The position numbers were made by a program, and so were the translations under genes. Below are positions 1-10,311 of a DNA stretch of 42,829 bases, one piece after another. Numbering within the stretch: the stretch's first letter is position 1; every line of letters begins with the position of its first letter. The notes below the pieces were generated by a model. The model did no database searches. It was not told where the DNA came from and saw nothing but the letters and a program-made list of their open reading frames with translations. Location of the stretch: contig JBGAGQ010000059.1 of the NCBI GenBank assembly GCA_044226625.1, forward strand, positions 1 to 42,829, given 5' to 3'. Source of the stretch: Thermoanaerobaculia bacterium. GTDB lineage: Bacteria > Acidobacteriota > Thermoanaerobaculia > Multivoradales > UBA5704.

Positions 1-347
1 GAGTGGAATCAGGAATTGCGAATCGAGAATCACGAATGATGGAAGAAGAGTCCCATTCAAGATTCTTGATTCGCCATTCGCCATTCGAGTGGAATCAGGA
101 ATTGCGAATCGAGAATCACGAATGATGGAAGAAGAGTCCCATTCAAGATTCTTGATTCGCCATTCGCCATTCGAGTGGAATCAGGAATTGCGAATCGAGA
201 ATCACGAATGATGGAAGAAGAGTCGCATTCAAGATTCTTGATTCGCCATTCGCCATTCGAGTGGAATCAGGAATTGCGAATCGAGAATCACGAATGATGG
301 AAGAAGAGTCCCATTCAAGATTCTTGATTCGCCATTCGCCATTCGAG
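1..347. repeat. Tandem array of four 86-bp imperfect palindromic units (plus 3 nt of a fifth)
   Basis: Units start at 1, 87, 173 and 259 and are identical except C>G at 225. Each has GAAT at unit offsets 6,13,20,27,34 and ATTC at 55,62,69,76,83. The array may extend beyond the window start. Confidence 0.95.
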
Positions 348-1580: not shown

Positions 1581-1832
1581 ATGAGCTTCCGCCATCCAGA
1601 GGCCGCCCCGGTGAGCCAGATCGCCCCCGAGCGGCGCGGAGCCGTCGTCGCCCGCTTCTGCCACGGTTGCCAGCAGCTGTATCCGCTCCTGCGCGCCCGC
1701 CACGTCGGACGGCCGATCTACGGCCGCGACCTCGTGACGTCAACCTGCACCTACGAAGGGATGCCGTTCGAGCACGGCGCCGCCTGGTGGGAAGAGGCGG
1801 TGGAAGTGTTGCCGGCGGTCGCGGCGGCGTAG
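1581..1832 (+). CDS. Small hypothetical protein with CxxC plus a third Cys and His residues (possible metal binding)
   Basis: GAGGAG SD, host-like codon usage, RFCHGCQQLYP...STC. Confidence 0.65.
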   Translation: MSFRHPEAAPVSQIAPERRGAVVARFCHGCQQLYPLLRARHVGRPIYGRDLVTSTCTYEGMPFEHGAAWWEEAVEVLPAVAAA

Positions 1833-1880
1833 CGCCCGGCCGTTACCATAGGGTCCAGCCCTCTGAGACGGGCGTCGGCT

Positions 1881-3125
1881 TTACCCTGCCCTCCTGGCTC
1901 GGGGCATGGTCACTCGCACGAAGTCGTCGGTCGCATCGAAACGGGCGTCTTTCCCGGACTCTGCGCGTACGAGAGGGACGATTTTTCGACGTACTCCCAT
2001 TCCCCGAGCGTCGACGTAGCCATAGTCGCGCATCACGTCGACGAGAAGAGGATTGCGCGGCGACCGTTGGCCGGCGAGCATTTTCTCGATCGTCATCGAG
2101 TTGTGCAGGGCGCCAGGACTTGTGATTTCGAGCCGATCGTCATAGGCGACGACTTCAACCTCGACTGAACGTGTCCAGTCCCGATGAATCACCGCATTGA
2201 CGAGCGCTTCGCGAAGCGCCTCGACTGGGTAGGACCACTTCCGTTCGCGGCGCAAGTTTTCGCCGACCGTTGCGTCCTCGGAGGATACGAAGGGAGTCAT
2301 CCGATCGACGACACGTTCAAGAAGGCCAGTTTCAACGACTTCGCTGTTCCCGGCTTCCGACCTCCGCGTGAGCGCCACCAACGGCCCGTCTAGGATCGTA
2401 TCGTCGAGGGCTTGGTACTCTTTGGTATCGCCCGAGAAGGCCATCCAGCGAATCCCGGCTTGGGGCAACGCGCGGCGAGGATTGCGCCCGAACAGCACTA
2501 GCCCCGCGATCGAGCAGACGTGTCGCCCGTCGGGCGCGGCAGTCATGAAGCCCAGACCGGTTAGGCGTTCTTCCCAAGCTGTGACGGACCCTGGCGCTGC
2601 AGAGTCCTTGAGATATTCGACGAGATAGTCGGTGAGGCGTTCAAGGCCAAGGTCCGGAAGTCCGGTGCCGGGTACGGCAAGCGTCTCGAGATGAAGCAGG
2701 GTCCCCGATGCGAAGAGGCGAGCTTGCTGCTCGCGCGACGCAAGTTGTGAGGTCGTTCCGACGCGGACGTAGATGTCCTCACGTCCGTTGTACCGAACCA
2801 CGTACGGCTTGGTGACACCGGCCTGGATGGTGAGCACGGCGACCCGGCGACCGTCATCGAGAAGAACTTCCTCGTAGAAAGGCAAGATCATCGGATGCAC
2901 GTACCGGCGGAGCACCGTGTCCATGATCCATTCTTCTGCGTTCTCTCGCGTGAGCCCAGAGATCGATCCGTCGTCCTCGACGCCGATCAGCAGGCGTCCG
3001 CCCTGAAAATTGGCGAATGCCACGATCGCCTTGGCCAGCCGTTCCGGGCGCACGTCATCGCGCTTGAAATCGATGCCTGAGCTCTCGCCGTTGGCGATCA
3101 GCTCCAGGAGTTCGGATTTTAACAT
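1881..3125 (-). CDS. Schlafen/AlbA_2-domain protein with C-terminal HATPase_c_4 (RecG-C-like) domain
   Basis: GESSGIDFKR and AFANFQGGRLLIGVEDDG (AlbA_2); YPVEALREALVNAVIHRD, EITSPG, PRNPLL and RGMGV (HATPase_c_4). No C-terminal HTH. Confidence 0.88.
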   Translation of the reverse strand: MLKSELLELIANGESSGIDFKRDDVRPERLAKAIVAFANFQGGRLLIGVEDDGSISGLTRENAEEWIMDTVLRRYVHPMILPFYEEVLLDDGRRVAVLTIQAGVTKPYVVRYNGREDIYVRVGTTSQLASREQQARLFASGTLLHLETLAVPGTGLPDLGLERLTDYLVEYLKDSAAPGSVTAWEERLTGLGFMTAAPDGRHVCSIAGLVLFGRNPRRALPQAGIRWMAFSGDTKEYQALDDTILDGPLVALTRRSEAGNSEVVETGLLERVVDRMTPFVSSEDATVGENLRRERKWSYPVEALREALVNAVIHRDWTRSVEVEVVAYDDRLEITSPGALHNSMTIEKMLAGQRSPRNPLLVDVMRDYGYVDARGMGVRRKIVPLVRAESGKDARFDATDDFVRVTMPRARRAG

Positions 3126-3137
3126 TGCCGAGCCGGC

Positions 3138-5843
3138 TCAAAATTCATACATTTCCTTTCTCTGTTCGAAGGCCGCACGGCCACCTTCGAGGATCTCCGC
3201 GGCCTGTTCTCGGATGTATGGTACGTCGATCGATCCTTGATGCCCAGGGCCGAGGGTGCCTCGGCTTTCGCTTGCCGAGAGCACGCCGATCCATTCCGCG
3301 TCGCCAAAGACGGGGATGTTCGCGTTGTGGGTCGAGAAGAGGAACTGCCGACGGGTCTTGGCGTCCCGCAGCTCGCGTACGATGCGCTCCGCGATGAATG
3401 CATTGTCGAGATTGTCCTCAGGTTGATCGACGACGAGAGGATCAGGATTGTCGAGGAGGAGCAGGTGGAGAACCGCAGTGCATTGCTGGCCCGTCGAAAG
3501 ACGCGAGAGATCCTTGTACTGCTCCCTCCCTCCATGGGAGACATTGAGCTCGATACTCACGAGATCAGCGAGCTCGAGGGCCTCGAGCTCGAGAATCCTC
3601 GAGTAGGGGAGTCTCGAGAGTGCTTCGGCGATCCCTGGAGTGACCCCATAGTCGGAGGCGAGTTTTTTCGCCCCCTGGCGAATTGCGTGCACCAGCGCTA
3701 GAGGCTTCACATCTCGATCTTCGATCCATGCGAGGCGCTTCTCGCCAACCCCCTCCAGCTTGCAGCTGGTGAGGAATTCCTTGAGTCGACCGCGATCTCC
3801 TTCGACTTGGAGGTCGATACGAAGCTTGCCCTTCAGGCGACGATTCAAATCGCTTACTGCAGCCTGAAGCCCTTTCGCCCGCGCGTTTCGTGCATCCGAG
3901 ACTTCCGCAATCAGGTTCTTGCGCTCTTGTTCTAAGCTCTCGAGCAGTAGCGTGAGCGTGGTCTTCCTGGCTTCGAGAGGCTTGATACGTTCGATTTCTT
4001 GAGTCAGCTGACGATAGGCGGCTCCGACCTCACGCCCACTCTTGCCTGCCAGGTCAGGAAGTCCGGCGAGAGACTTCTCTAGTTCACGTTCTCCAGCGTT
4101 CATGGCTTCCCGCCAATTGGACATCCTGATCTCGAACGCCTCTTGGGCGGACTTGATCAGCGTCGATATCGCGGTCTGATGTGCAACGAGCTCGCTCGTG
4201 AGTCTCTCGAACTCCTCGCGAATGCCTACCAGCAGAGCAATATCCGGAAGCCCCTCCAGGGACTTGTCGCCGAGAAAGGTCAAGTCAGGCAAGCTCTCGT
4301 TGAGTGATTGAACCCCTTCCTCGAGTCGGCCGAGTTCTTGCCGCGCACGGTTTACCAGTTCTCGCTCGCGTGCGTAAAGCGGGGTCTTGGCGAGGCTGAC
4401 CTCGATACCGAGGGACTGGAATCCTTTGAGTCGTTCTCCCAGCTTCGGTAGGCTCGCGACGGCTTCGGTGATCTCGTCCAAATCTGTACGAGCCTTGATG
4501 AGCTTCTGTGCGTTGTCTGATAGCCGTTTCCGGAGGCCTTCGTGTCGGTTGGGGTCCGCTGAGGCGGTGGGAATGAAGCGCTCTAGCAACCGAGATCGGC
4601 TTTGGGCGTCCTGTGCCAGCTCAAAAATCTCGTTCTGTCCGTACACCTCGATCTGCGGCAAGATGTCACGAGGGGACTGGTGAGAAACGGCTCCTTTTGC
4701 GTCACGAACGATTGCCGGCTCTCCATAGCGCCGGGAAATGGTGAATTGAATCCCGTGTTGGACCGCCGAGCGCACCGTCATCTCGATTGAACCAGCCTGC
4801 TTACCCAGGTTCTCTTTGAGAATGTCTTGATGAAGCTTGAGTGCCTGCTTTCCTTTGGGCGGTAGTTCGAGGACATAGCGGAGGCATTCGATGAAGGTTG
4901 ATTTACCCGTCCCTCGACCGCCGATCAGCGCGTTCAAATGGTTGGAAAAGCGAGCCTCGACTCGATCGAGATAGCCTCCACGAATCCTCATGGTTTCAAG
5001 GACGCTGTGCGGTTCGTCCGCCACGCTCAGCCGAACCCGCGACTGCGGATCCAGGAACGCGACCTTGAAAGCCTCGAAGGTCGGATGGGTCATCTTGATC
5101 CAGGTCGACGCGCTTGGGTTCTCGAGGTCTTCAGGTCTGGCGACGTCTTTGGCATTGATAAGGGTGATGAGACGATCGCGCGGATAGTCCGGGTTCCGGT
5201 TCTCTACGATGTCGAGGAAATTTTGCGGTAGGTCGGTTACTGGCCCTGGGATTTGCGCCACCCGAACATGCTGAGAATCTTTCCAAACATGAGCGAGACC
5301 GCCGCCATCCCTTTGCAGTCGGAGTAGTCCGCTGTTTCCGGTCACGTGCGCCGCGTACCAGAAACCGCCGAAGTCATGGATCTTCTTGGCGAGCTCTAAG
5401 CAACCGATGGAGGAGGGACGTACGCCATCGCTGACGTCCGTCACGCCGAGATTTCCCAGGTAGCGATTGAGCTTATCTACCGGGGTATCTTCCGGGAACA
5501 AGCAGACCATGTGAATCTTCTCGGTCGATGAGATCTCGAATCCAGGGAAGGTTACGATTTCCTGACCCGAGAGTACCTGCCGTAGGCGGTCGATGCTCTC
5601 GACGTTGCCGTGGTCGGCGATTCCCACAACCTTGATGTTCAGCTCGCGGCACTTCTCTCCGAGAGCTTGATTGTAGGCGTCCTCGTTGAGGGCGTGGTCC
5701 TGTCCCCGATACAGCGACTGATACCGGTAAGGGTTGACTTGAAGAGCGCAACGCCAGAACCTAGCAAACGTAAACTCCTCCTTCGAAGCCGCTACCTCTT
5801 GAAGGAGAGTCCGGTGTTCGGTCTGGAGGTCGTCCTTGCTCAT
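3138..5843 (-). CDS. PHP domain + SMC/ABC-type ATPase (Ppl/TrlF-like), candidate anti-phage protein
   Basis: PHP-like N-terminus (IADHGN, PGFEI, IHMVCLF, YAAHV). Walker A GGRGTGKS, long coiled coil, signature LSTGQQ, Walker B/D-loop VVDQPEDNLD, H-loop STHNAN. Confidence 0.88.
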   Translation of the reverse strand: MSKDDLQTEHRTLLQEVAASKEEFTFARFWRCALQVNPYRYQSLYRGQDHALNEDAYNQALGEKCRELNIKVVGIADHGNVESIDRLRQVLSGQEIVTFPGFEISSTEKIHMVCLFPEDTPVDKLNRYLGNLGVTDVSDGVRPSSIGCLELAKKIHDFGGFWYAAHVTGNSGLLRLQRDGGGLAHVWKDSQHVRVAQIPGPVTDLPQNFLDIVENRNPDYPRDRLITLINAKDVARPEDLENPSASTWIKMTHPTFEAFKVAFLDPQSRVRLSVADEPHSVLETMRIRGGYLDRVEARFSNHLNALIGGRGTGKSTFIECLRYVLELPPKGKQALKLHQDILKENLGKQAGSIEMTVRSAVQHGIQFTISRRYGEPAIVRDAKGAVSHQSPRDILPQIEVYGQNEIFELAQDAQSRSRLLERFIPTASADPNRHEGLRKRLSDNAQKLIKARTDLDEITEAVASLPKLGERLKGFQSLGIEVSLAKTPLYARERELVNRARQELGRLEEGVQSLNESLPDLTFLGDKSLEGLPDIALLVGIREEFERLTSELVAHQTAISTLIKSAQEAFEIRMSNWREAMNAGERELEKSLAGLPDLAGKSGREVGAAYRQLTQEIERIKPLEARKTTLTLLLESLEQERKNLIAEVSDARNARAKGLQAAVSDLNRRLKGKLRIDLQVEGDRGRLKEFLTSCKLEGVGEKRLAWIEDRDVKPLALVHAIRQGAKKLASDYGVTPGIAEALSRLPYSRILELEALELADLVSIELNVSHGGREQYKDLSRLSTGQQCTAVLHLLLLDNPDPLVVDQPEDNLDNAFIAERIVRELRDAKTRRQFLFSTHNANIPVFGDAEWIGVLSASESRGTLGPGHQGSIDVPYIREQAAEILEGGRAAFEQRKEMYEF

Positions 5844-6009
5844 GGTCTCTTCTTTCGCCGCGTGAAAATCTCAAGGGGAGGCCCCTCCGAGGCATGGATA
5901 AGGGTACGATATACGAGGCCAGGACGCCGCGAGGCCGTTCTTTGAGGTGTATTCGTCGGCGGTATATGCTTAGGGTCTCAATTGCGCGGCGGCGCGGAAG
6001 GAGGCCCGG

Positions 6010-6744
6010 ATGACGAAGCGACGGACTCTCGCCTTTGCGATCGTTTTCATCGCGAACGCTCTTCTCGGTGGGGCGATCGGTGTTTCGGCGGCCAAAGGGC
6101 TCTCTCTGCCGGTGCCCGCATGGACGGCGATCGGCGAGGAGGCCGACCGCGCCCTCCGAGCGGGAAAGTGGGAGGCGGGGCGCGACGCGGCGGAGCGACT
6201 GATCGGCGAGATCCTGGCGAAACCGGTCGAAGGGGAAGGCTTGAGCACGCTGCTCGCGCGCGCGGTCGCTTATCGGGCGATCGCTTGTGCGGGGCTCGGA
6301 GACGTCCAGGCGGCGGAATGGTCGGCGGCGGCGGCTCGGGAGCTCGGATTCACGCTCCGCGATCTCGATCTCTCCCCGTTCGGCGCGTCGGGTGAGGTGC
6401 TGCGGGCCGCCCTTCGCCCCGAGGCGACTCGACCGAACCCGGAAGTGCGGCAGGTGGGGCCAGGCGTCGGCCGGCCCGCATTGATCGAAAGGGTGCCGGT
6501 GGCGTTTCCGGAGGCGATGCGCGGGCAGATGGCGGGCGGCGTGGTGATCACCCAGGTGACGATCGGCGTCGACGGCAGGGTGAGCGCGCCGACGATCCTC
6601 CATTCGCCGAGTCCCTATCTGTCGCTCGCCGCTCTCGATTCTCTCCGAGCTTGGCGCTTCAAGCCCTCGATCCTCGACGGGAAGCCGGTTCCGGTGACCT
6701 ACGTGCTGACGGTAAACTTTTCGGTCGGAGGCGCTCTGAAGTAA
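6010..6744 (+). CDS. Secreted/anchored protein with helical N-terminal domain and TonB C-terminal domain
   Basis: Signal peptide MTKRRTLAFAIVF; FPEAMR...GVVITQVTIGVDGRV...AALDSLRAWRFKPSILDGKPVPV; AGGAGG SD. Confidence 0.85.
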   Translation: MTKRRTLAFAIVFIANALLGGAIGVSAAKGLSLPVPAWTAIGEEADRALRAGKWEAGRDAAERLIGEILAKPVEGEGLSTLLARAVAYRAIACAGLGDVQAAEWSAAAARELGFTLRDLDLSPFGASGEVLRAALRPEATRPNPEVRQVGPGVGRPALIERVPVAFPEAMRGQMAGGVVITQVTIGVDGRVSAPTILHSPSPYLSLAALDSLRAWRFKPSILDGKPVPVTYVLTVNFSVGGALK

Positions 6745-9418: not shown

Positions 9419-9574
9419 TCGCTCTCTTCTAAGAGATGCCGCGCGCGACCGTCTTCTGGCGTAGACGGTCGGCCTCGGCCCATCGTCTACCGGCGAGGAC
9501 GCGTCCCGGGGACGGCGTCCGGGTGTCGCCGGGAAATCCCGCGTTTGTCGCGGTTTACGTCCTGCCGTGAGGGT

Positions 9575-9590
9575 TGGCACGGAAGTTGGT
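9575..9590 (+). promoter_or_regulatory. Putative sigma-54 (-24/-12) promoter
   Basis: TGGCAC-GGAAG-TTGGT versus consensus TGGCAC-N5-TTGCW, one mismatch at the -12 C. Well placed before SD AAGGAGG (9606-9612). Confidence 0.45.
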
Positions 9591-9621
9591 TTATAGGCCG
9601 GGCGGAAGGAGGTTCGAAACG

Positions 9622-10311
9622 ATGAACCGCACGCAGGAATCGAAGCAATCGAAGCTCTGGAAGGTCGGCGCCCTCTCCCTGGCGCTCTTTGCTCTCCCGA
9701 TGTTCTCGGCCCCGGCCAGTGCCGACGGCTTCTCGATCGGAGCGATCTTCCGGATCGGGGGTGTCCACTTCAACTTGGCTTTCGGCGACTTCGGCTACGG
9801 CCACCCCCGGGGGTATTACTACCGTACCCTCGACCCGATCTCGTACGGCGGGTACCGGTGCAGCGACTCCTGTTTCAACTCGGGTGGCTATCACTATCAC
9901 CACGAGAGCTGCCCGCTGGTTCAGCGCCATCTGTCAGCGTACGGCATCGACCCGTACGTCCTGTTCGACAGCTACGCGCCGTACAACGACGGGTACGCCT
10001 ACTACGGCTACGGCAATCGGTACGACCGGTACAACCGGTACGACAACTACAACCGCTACGACCGGTACCCCCGGCACGATCGGTATGACGGCCGGTACGA
10101 CCGCCACGACCGCTACGACGGGCGCGACCGCCACGACCGTTACGACCGCCGCGACCGGCACGACCGCTACGACGGCCGACGGGATCGCCACGGCCGCTAC
10201 GACAACTACCCGTACCGCGACCGCCGTCAGGGTCACTCGGGCGGGTCTCACGATGGGCATCACGACGGGCACCACCGGGGACAGTCCTCGGAACGCCCGC
10301 AGCAGCACTAG
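9622..10311 (+). CDS. Secreted protein with Cys/His motif and R-(Y/H)-D low-complexity repeat tail
   Basis: AAGGAGG SD, signal peptide ending PASA-D, CSDSC...YHYHHESCP, then RYDRHD repeats and a His-rich end. Confidence 0.8.
   Translation: MNRTQESKQSKLWKVGALSLALFALPMFSAPASADGFSIGAIFRIGGVHFNLAFGDFGYGHPRGYYYRTLDPISYGGYRCSDSCFNSGGYHYHHESCPLVQRHLSAYGIDPYVLFDSYAPYNDGYAYYGYGNRYDRYNRYDNYNRYDRYPRHDRYDGRYDRHDRYDGRDRHDRYDRRDRHDRYDGRRDRHGRYDNYPYRDRRQGHSGGSHDGHHDGHHRGQSSERPQQH
10018..10215 (+). repeat. Degenerate 9-bp coding repeat (CGNYACGAC-like) encoding RYD/RHD triplets
   Basis: cggtacgac cggtacaac cggtacgac ... cgccacgac cgctacgac. Confidence 0.85.

Follow-up and report, generated by a model that had tools for sequence, protein, structure and literature searches.

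A stretch of 42,829 nucleotides (nt) from a Thermoanaerobaculia bacterium (contig JBGAGQ010000059.1 of assembly GCA_044226625.1), called the window here in its whole length, contains two adjacent minus-strand genes that are a distant relative of the named trlF-trlG pair of Photorhabdus laumondii, which has been described already but not as immunity. In other bacteria trlF-trlG usually sits in phage-defence loci, hence it is probably an anti-phage module, and on balance we think it likely to be a module of the abortive-infection type, in which TrlF would be sensor or gate and TrlG the RNase effector. Its patchy spread, its defence-locus context, the swapping of its effector and its conserved pairing all count in favor of a defence module, and some link to defence is very likely. 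A previous reading of this DNA from its letters alone (the sequence-only reading) had proposed an undescribed two-gene anti-phage system, a claim of novelty that has to be given up: the pair is the trlF-trlG of PMC7554251, TrlF has an NCBIfam family of its own, and the architecture of TrlG is the one called 'pSlfn-HisKinase' in PMC13056530. The pair, with lengths in amino acids (aa), is as follows:

3138 to 5843, minus strand: trlF-family gene, 901 aa, ATG start; a PHP-fold domain plus a Rad50/SMC-like ABC ATPase with a coiled-coil insert (NCBIfam NF045780; Pfam AAA_21, AAA_23, SMC_N).
1881 to 3125, minus strand: trlG-type gene, 414 aa, ATG start; a Schlafen/AlbA_2 nuclease domain plus a GHKL-like HATPase_c_4 domain, without a helix-turn-helix (HTH) (Pfam).
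3126 to 3137, minus strand: 12-nt spacer from the trlF stop to the trlG start (read on the minus strand).

The junction reads TGA gccggctcggca ATG on the minus strand, in agreement with the two co-oriented genes 12 bp apart that had been reported before. Each of the two proteins has thousands of homologues, so neither open reading frame (ORF) is a product of chance.

The surroundings of the pair were analyzed by comparing PADLOC models with 319 ORFs of at least 110 aa from 33 loci that have at least 5 kb of DNA on both sides (ORFs were called greedily, which is imperfect in high-GC DNA; for the first batch the search threshold was 1e-25 and the reading threshold 1e-80). Of the 33 loci, 26 have one or more matches at E<=1e-80, with the window's own 22 ORFs outside the pair serving as the control (0 of 22 at 1e-25). 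The pair lies between PglX and PglZ in 13 of these loci and between PglX and BrxL in one more, and parts of a bacteriophage exclusion (BREX) system flank it in 17 overall. For restriction-modification (R-M) systems, the pair is found between type III mod and res genes in two loci and between type I S and R genes in one, and other loci adjoin REase_III, Zorya, Cas9 or a true Ppl. Annotated records contain the arrangements hsdS-trlF-trlG-hsdR (a Citrobacter IncC plasmid), hsdR-trlF-trlG-hsdS (pNDM102337) and pglX-trlF-trlG-pglZ (a Vibrio plasmid), a pair that adjoins BREX-1 in E. coli ET896, and an O157:H7 trlF with insertion sequence elements behind it and with P4-like genes and an ABC-three-component system nearby. 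Known defence genes thus lie near most of the relatives examined and not near the pair in the window.

The association of the two genes is nearly constant among close relatives. From 294 TrlF relatives found in species genomes, 62 loci were kept, and 57 of the 58 loci with downstream DNA have a TrlG homologue (52-73% identity) after TrlF; the exception, L003, has TrlF without TrlG, and four further loci stop at a contig edge. The order to which the window belongs was also scanned with the NCBIfam TrlF model at its cut-off (201 genomes from 70 genera, plus 14 control genomes), and TrlF was found in 28 of the 201 genomes, 16 of the 70 genera and none of the 14 controls; within the window's own genus, two genomes have copies at other sites and two have none. 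The loci examined in this order numbered 43 (the 38 above the cut-off apart from the window, and five just below it; eight fragmentary rows were dropped), one of which lies at a contig edge. For the remaining 42, the gene downstream of TrlF encodes AlbA_2 + HATPase_c_4 domains in 29, PglZ in four, an HD-CE protein, a weak PLD-like protein and a transposase in one each, and is unclear in six. Both surveys support the co-occurrence that had been set as a check on the sequence-only reading.

Two loci illustrate what can stand in the place of TrlG. The TrlF genes of L080 (2-1492) and L078 (134-1372) both have a canonical HxH motif; the gene after one of them encodes an HD-CE protein (127.7 bits), and the gene after the other a 413-aa protein with a weak PLD-like match (24.9 bits, below cut-off). 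One ATPase with an exchangeable nuclease-like partner is, by analogy, the pattern of sensor-effector defence systems. TrlF itself is a large family (1373 clusters at 50% identity match it at E<=1e-30), and among 150 representatives listed there is one natural TrlF-TrlG fusion of 1354 aa, P0344. This protein has a weak PHP match, the ABC ATPase, SLFN_AlbA_2 (964-1078) and HATPase_c_4 (1264-1350) domains and an ALQVNP motif; it is a single representative and possibly a read-through artefact. A separate search for longer fusions covered proteins of 1578-4505 aa, a range above the ~1350-aa size of this fusion. Within the pair, conservation of TrlG exceeds that of TrlF in 48 of 49 loci. At L052:10174-11487, TrlG is directly followed by another gene of the AlbA_2 + HATPase_c_4 type, whose identity to TrlG is 29%. 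In addition, for E. coli 0H25, 0H18 and PCP06171 the annotation of the trlG region shows two short HTH/AlbA proteins and an 'ATP-binding protein', which suggests that trlG is broken in these strains.

The assignment of the first gene to the TrlF family rests on a match to NF045780 (TrlF family AAA-like ATPase) of 524.1 bits against a cut-off of 350, which spans residues 27-899 and profile positions 3-943/944; the genome scan agrees. Four parts can be recognized in the protein:

5019 to 5765, minus strand: PHP-fold domain, aa ~27-275, with a variant metal site (structure model, Foldseek and conservation).
4584 to 5009, minus strand: N-lobe of the ABC head, aa 279-420, with Walker A G308-S315 at nt 4896-4922 and Q-loop Q403 (conservation).
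3744 to 4583, minus strand: presumed coiled-coil insert, aa ~421-700 (weak RecN/SMC/Rad50 matches, residues 404-673).
3141 to 3743, minus strand: C-lobe of the ABC head, aa 701-901, with signature LSTGQQ 782-787, Walker B/D-loop D806-Q-P-E809...D813, H-loop H839 and a conserved C-terminal helix (conservation).

Across 51 diverse relatives, the Walker A motif (GGRGTGKST, residues 308-316) has invariant G308, G311, G313, K314 and S315, and S783, G785, D806, Q807, E809, D813, H839 and E886-G888 are invariant as well. Variability within TrlF peaks in the presumed coiled coil, where mean identity is 0.23 vs 0.37-0.53 in the other domains. Together with a Pfam SMC_N match over residues 293-843, these features make TrlF, as far as its sequence can tell, an ABC ATPase of the SMC/Rad50 type with a long insert, presumably a coiled coil, between its lobes, and the earlier call of an SMC-type ATPase is upheld. 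Solved structures searched with the TrlF sequence gave generic SMC/ABC matches only.

The N-terminal domain had no match to Pfam PHP at E<=0.01, and its fold was read from a structure model of residues 1-290 (predicted local distance difference test score, pLDDT, 84.7). The top Foldseek matches of this domain are all PHP proteins (E 4e-7 to 1e-3, template-modeling (TM) score 0.4-0.54) and include EndoQ (5zb8/7k30, E 4e-7), the PHP esterase 2anu / TM0559, RNase AM (7ug9) and the PHP domain of Pol III alpha. The canonical metal ligands of PHP proteins are D-x-H-x-H in motif I and D-x-H in the last motif. In the window's TrlF, A33-L-Q35-V-N37 replaces D-x-H-x-H and the last histidine is A235, and H78, E103, H111, H166 and D233 are kept. 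The alanine in the final D-x-H motif is found across the clade that has the A-L-Q-V-N motif, which takes in the solo S. aureus and E. coli copies and the fusion protein, and D-x-H-x-H is retained in Ppl, pYR3, IncC and the two TrlF proteins of L078 and L080. In the 51 relatives (26-53% identity), H78, E103 and D233 are invariant, and conservation is 90% or more at Q35, N37, D77, H111 and H166. We presume that the replacements in motif I and the last motif would remove most ligands at two of the three PHP metal sites, and, judged by these residues, the PHP domain of this clade is either re-tooled or non-catalytic. We rejected a coupling of canonical PHP sites with degenerate Schlafen motifs, or of degenerate PHP sites with canonical Schlafen motifs, as most HxH-type TrlF genes have ExxxxExK TrlG partners.

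Ppl, a PHP protein joined to an ATPase, is reportedly a single-gene anti-phage system (Gao et al. 2020). TrlF resembles it in having a PHP domain followed by an ABC/SMC-type ATPase and in its similar size, and the C-terminal head of the window's TrlF matches the Ppl models; however, TrlF nearly always has a second gene, and identification of the protein as Ppl failed with both models, NCBIfam NF042955 (151 bits vs a cut-off of 1000) and PADLOC PDLC02208 (120.6 bits in two partial stretches, the best being residues 774-896). A true Ppl keeps DFHTH. The label 'Ppl-like' therefore holds for the architecture and not for the family or, given the loss of HxH in this clade, for the PHP site. L038:14022-18104, ~2 kb downstream of a TrlFG pair, contains such a true Ppl, which matches PADLOC over its full length (E 2.3e-131), and 7 nt after it a 417-aa AlbA_2 + HATPase_c_4 gene of its own; therefore Ppl-type proteins can also pair with a Schlafen-GHKL gene.

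The second gene product, TrlG, has Pfam matches to PF04326 (SLFN_AlbA_2, 74 bits, aa 14-129) and PF13749 (HATPase_c_4, 71.4 bits, aa 322-407) and to nothing else:

2739 to 3086, minus strand: Schlafen/AlbA_2 domain, aa 14-129, with E14-x4-D19-x-K21 at nt 3063-3086 and GVEDDG with invariant D51 (Pfam and conservation).
1905 to 2162, minus strand: HATPase_c_4 (GHKL-like) domain, aa 322-407, with E306 + N310 (N-box-like) just upstream (Pfam and Foldseek).

Because these domains reach residue 407 and the protein ends only seven residues later, at 414, there is no room for the C-terminal HTH, whose absence had been pointed out earlier. The structure model of TrlG (pLDDT 81.2) has a full-length Foldseek match in 3lmm, which was also found by sequence; its N-terminal domain matches the nuclease domains of mammalian SLFN14/12/13/11/5 and the SAMD9 tRNase, and its C-terminal domain matches histidine-kinase CA domains. 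The Schlafen catalytic motif Ex4(E/D)xK is intact (E14, D19, K21), and E14-x4-D/E19-x-K21 is kept among TrlG relatives, in which S16, V35, A36 and D51 are invariant; among the partners compared, only those of pYR3 and the IncC plasmid have Q at position 19.

With PF04326 and its Ex4(E/D)xK motif, a GHKL domain and no HTH, TrlG falls within the prokaryotic Slfn-HisKinase class (pSlfn1) as that class is defined in PMC13056530. Bacterial Schlafens are described as phage-activated tRNases, with tRNA cleavage shown for RorSlfn5 only, and 'HisKinase' fusions are their largest class (34%); however, the systems that were validated are Ig-like and DUF262 fusions (PMC13056530). The words PHP, ATPase and operon do not appear in the main text of this paper. 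Its supplementary file 11 includes a Schlafen gene from P. laumondii TTO1 (411368-412531, 1164 nt) whose neighbors are Lamassu-family and UG9 matches; this gene may be trlG, in which case trlF would have been taken for LmuB. In a second source, Schlafen-HisK(-wHTH) genes are linked to BREX in at least 1017 taxa, and the available text never uses the word PHP (PMC12839542). HisKinase-Schlafen is also listed as an effector of ParA systems (2026 preprint).

The clearest information on function comes from the TRL locus of P. laumondii, which consists of trlR-trlF-trlG, blocks growth above ~35 degrees C and is transcriptionally induced on temperature up-shift (PMC7554251). Heat-tolerant clones had mutations in trlG, an AlbA_2 + HATPase_c_4 gene mis-annotated as RecG, and these suppressors include S16N, V35I and A36V (PMC7554251). 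The location of the suppressors in trlG fits TrlG as a toxic effector and is in line with the RNase-effector role that had been proposed for the Schlafen partner. TrlG-dependent growth arrest is shown in print, as far as the available text of this paper goes, for this distant homologue only, and the same text is silent on phage defence. The window's pair shares with TRL the order trlF then trlG, that is, a large 'histidinol phosphatase'/ATPase followed by an AlbA_2 + HATPase_c_4 protein mis-named RecG, and the suppressor positions S16, V35 and A36 are invariant in window-type TrlG (by numbering; pYR3 TrlG shares this numbering up to K21). In contrast, identity to the pair of Yersinia ruckeri pYR3, which PMC7554251 lists as a syntenic TRL, is only 23% for TrlF (E 4e-43) and 29% for TrlG (E 1e-42); PHP motif I is ALQVN in the window and DFHLH in pYR3, TrlG position 19 is D in the window and Q in pYR3 and IncC plasmids, and trlR, a 79-aa upstream regulator, is missing from the window, which has only ~110 nt of unique DNA upstream of the pair.

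When pYR3 TrlR (HTH_73) was used as a tblastn query, there were matches in L069 and L076 and none in the window or the 62 loci. These two TrlR-type small genes (Pfam HTH_73; L069:4902-5138 and L076:3691-3927) are 91% identical between pYR3 and a Citrobacter plasmid, and the Citrobacter gene comes first in an entire type I R-M operon, with trlF lying 4 kb away; a TrlR-type gene may thus regulate the island rather than trlFG.

In the mechanism that we favor, TrlG would be made together with TrlF and held inactive until the state of TrlF was altered, either by a cue from a phage or mobile element or because the BREX or R-M system around the pair had failed. The freed TrlG RNase would then cut tRNA or rRNA and so stop translation and growth, as in abortive infection, and heat might act by unsettling TrlF. 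We infer the anti-phage role, the RNA target, direct contact between TrlF and TrlG and the choice between restraint and activation. The sequence-only reading had the ATPase activating the RNase, which is doubtful: activation predicts that loss-of-function mutants in trlF, the larger target, should dominate the heat screen, and none was found (PMC7554251). Restraint followed by release would fit better, by analogy with PARIS as summarized in PMC12839542. Co-folding the TrlF head (279-430 + 690-901) with TrlG gave a score of 0.00 and, with the PHP domain and coiled coil left out, weighs neither way.

PARIS (AriA ABC ATPase + AriB TOPRIM tRNase) and Lamassu (LmuB SMC + variable LmuA) are like trlFG in combining an ABC/SMC-type ATPase with a nuclease effector, in having exchangeable effectors and in being modules beside BREX or R-M systems, with tRNA cleavage as the outcome (for PARIS, according to PMC12839542). 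On the other hand, the trlFG effector is Schlafen-GHKL and not TOPRIM or Cap4, there is a PHP domain on TrlF, and the matches are weak and partial. Neither system can be assigned to the pair, which has no full-length AriA/AriB or LmuB/LmuA match, and TrlG matches pAgo-associated models only. The PADLOC check that had been proposed thus gave, besides the partial Ppl match, weak matches of TrlF to LmuB (1e-11), AriA (4.4e-9, residues 762-843 only) and GajA, and no full-length system.

A more detailed version of this mechanism, which we offer as a tentative proposal that may well be wrong, is a guard-type back-up immunity in which a Rad50-like ATPase with a non-catalytic or re-tooled PHP sensor would hold a Schlafen tRNase in check and release it when BREX or R-M is attacked or when heat destabilizes the ATPase. 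The temperature restriction of Photorhabdus would then be autoimmunity, and bacterial Schlafens would be under the control of an SMC-family ATPase.

Several observations weigh against a defence module of this kind. In the window, none of the 22 ORFs outside the pair has a PADLOC match at 1e-25, so the pair stands alone here. Elsewhere, seven of the 33 loci (L017, L025, L030, L052, L055, L058 and L062) have no PADLOC match at E<=1e-80, and some of the loci are nearly identical or related to one another (L012/L019, L044/L047/L050 and L015/L016), so that the counts given above overstate independence. TrlF also occurs without TrlG, directly before pglZ in 4 of 42 order loci and in E. coli cq9 and on Klebsiella and S. 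aureus plasmids. The only printed phenotype is temperature restriction, from a pair that is 23-29% identical, and since the published screen yielded no heat-tolerant clone mutated in trlF, the larger gene, toxicity may not need TrlF (PMC7554251). Two Slfn-HisKinase genes gave no protection when tested singly, the effect of EcoSlfn1 on lambda, P1 and T1-T7 not being significant (PMC13056530). Finally, no phage test or defence naming of trlFG was found in the literature searched; Krishnan et al. 2020 (NAR), on ABC ATPases in conflict systems, lay outside that search and may already describe the pairing.

Other explanations of the pair have to be considered. It is unlikely, in our judgment, that TrlF alone is a defence protein like Ppl, with its PHP domain an ATP-gated DNA nuclease and TrlG a dispensable second or back-up effector. 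Annotated records do place solo trlF in defence contexts, after brxL both in an E. coli integrative and conjugative element and on a Klebsiella plasmid, and the copy among resistance genes on an S. aureus plasmid is solo too; yet the pairing counts of 57/58 and 29/42, and the replacement of the downstream gene by other nuclease-like genes, count against this reading. The PHP folds nearest to TrlF are nucleases (EndoQ, RNase AM) and three of the site residues are invariant, but the ALQVN clade is without HxH and the final His of the site. Ppl is reported to be a single-gene system; the growth arrest of Photorhabdus maps to trlG (PMC7554251).

We give little credence to a stress or growth-control module, similar to toxin-antitoxin pairs, that stops growth under heat or other stress and has no role against phages. 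The sole experimental phenotype is indeed a temperature-dependent arrest with transcription up on up-shift (PMC7554251), although such a heat-triggered arrest could be autoimmunity. The window's pair sits among housekeeping genes, but across many phyla the pair is inside BREX and R-M operons, with a patchy, multi-copy distribution and an effector that is swapped in some relatives.

Dependence on a host system, in which the pair would be a non-autonomous accessory of BREX or R-M that adds, for example, a nuclease layer, also appears quite improbable. The BREX-flanked loci described above (17 of 33, 13 of them PglX-PglZ and one PglX-BrxL) and the linkage of Schlafen-HisK to BREX in so many taxa (PMC12839542) would fit such a role; however, some pairs have type I or type III R-M genes around them, others adjoin CRISPR or Zorya genes, and the window's pair stands by itself, so that one host system can evidently take the place of another.

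A housekeeping complex for DNA repair resembling SbcCD/Rad50-Mre11, suggested by a Rad50-like architecture with an attached phosphoesterase domain, by the coiled-coil-split ABC head that in SbcCD works with a metal phosphoesterase, and by a GO label 'double-strand break repair' on RefSeq homologues, is very improbable indeed, as the TrlF phosphoesterase is a fused PHP fold, no zinc-hook cysteines are found among the conserved apex residues of TrlF, 173 of the 201 order genomes and all 14 controls are without a match above cut-off, and the gene is patchy, mobile and defence-linked, carried on plasmids and an insertion of foreign GC, with an RNase-type partner domain.

In the window, the pair makes up an insertion, which was mapped by DNA comparison with 30 relatives followed by reading of the junctions:

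1839 to 5955, no strand: inserted block of ~4.1 kb, GC 0.56-0.62, containing two genes only (homology breaks and GC profile).
5844 to 5955, minus strand: unique upstream part of the insertion, ~110 nt, presumed promoter (junction reading).

GC content is 0.56-0.62 over 1751-6000 vs ~0.69-0.74 in the 6-9 kb flank and 0.65-0.74 in the left flank. In three genomes of the same genus (G002, G003 and G007), the match ends at window position 1825-1838 and restarts at ~5955-6106, with an empty site of 0.3-0.9 kb between kept flanks (ndk + a small conserved ORF on one side, a TonB-like gene + a UDG-family gene on the other). The lower-GC block among housekeeping genes that had been noticed before is thus a true insertion: a trlF-trlG module gained by horizontal transfer and belonging to a divergent 'CALQVNP' subfamily. 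As also noted earlier, no mobility gene is present among the domain-annotated neighbors of the pair (Peptidase_S51, NDK, TonB_C, UDG, TonB_C, EgtD-like methyltransferase, poly(A) polymerase and Sdh_cyt), and no convincing direct repeat or target-site duplication flanks the insertion ends. No sigma-70 consensus was seen upstream of trlF (a promoter scan of 1700-6200 gave 0 promoters), and the two terminator-like sites in 1700-6200 are both within genes, a count below the shuffle mean.

Other features were observed in and around the window. In G007 (L067:1040-1160), a long GC-rich palindromic element occupies the empty site where the window has the insertion, which begins just past an 83-aa ORF after ndk (1581-1832) that has 86-87% nucleotide identity in same-genus genomes and no Pfam match. 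At the start of the window (28-347, GC 0.53), bases 200-347 also match 28-175 and 114-261 at 99%, which indicates a tandem repeat of ~86 bp. A 245-aa ORF at 9574-10311 combines a signal-like start with a long repeat rich in Arg, Tyr, Asp and His (RYDRHDRYDG-like) and has no Pfam match.

For this window alone, the result is an ordinary horizontally acquired copy of trlFG. If the pair is a defence module, a widespread pair of genes that lies inside many BREX and R-M loci would gain a function, and the upper growth temperature of Photorhabdus would be explained as autoimmunity. In addition, the Slfn-HisKinase class, which was negative when tested alone, would gain a candidate for its missing partner, and E. 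coli strains carry native trlFG copies.

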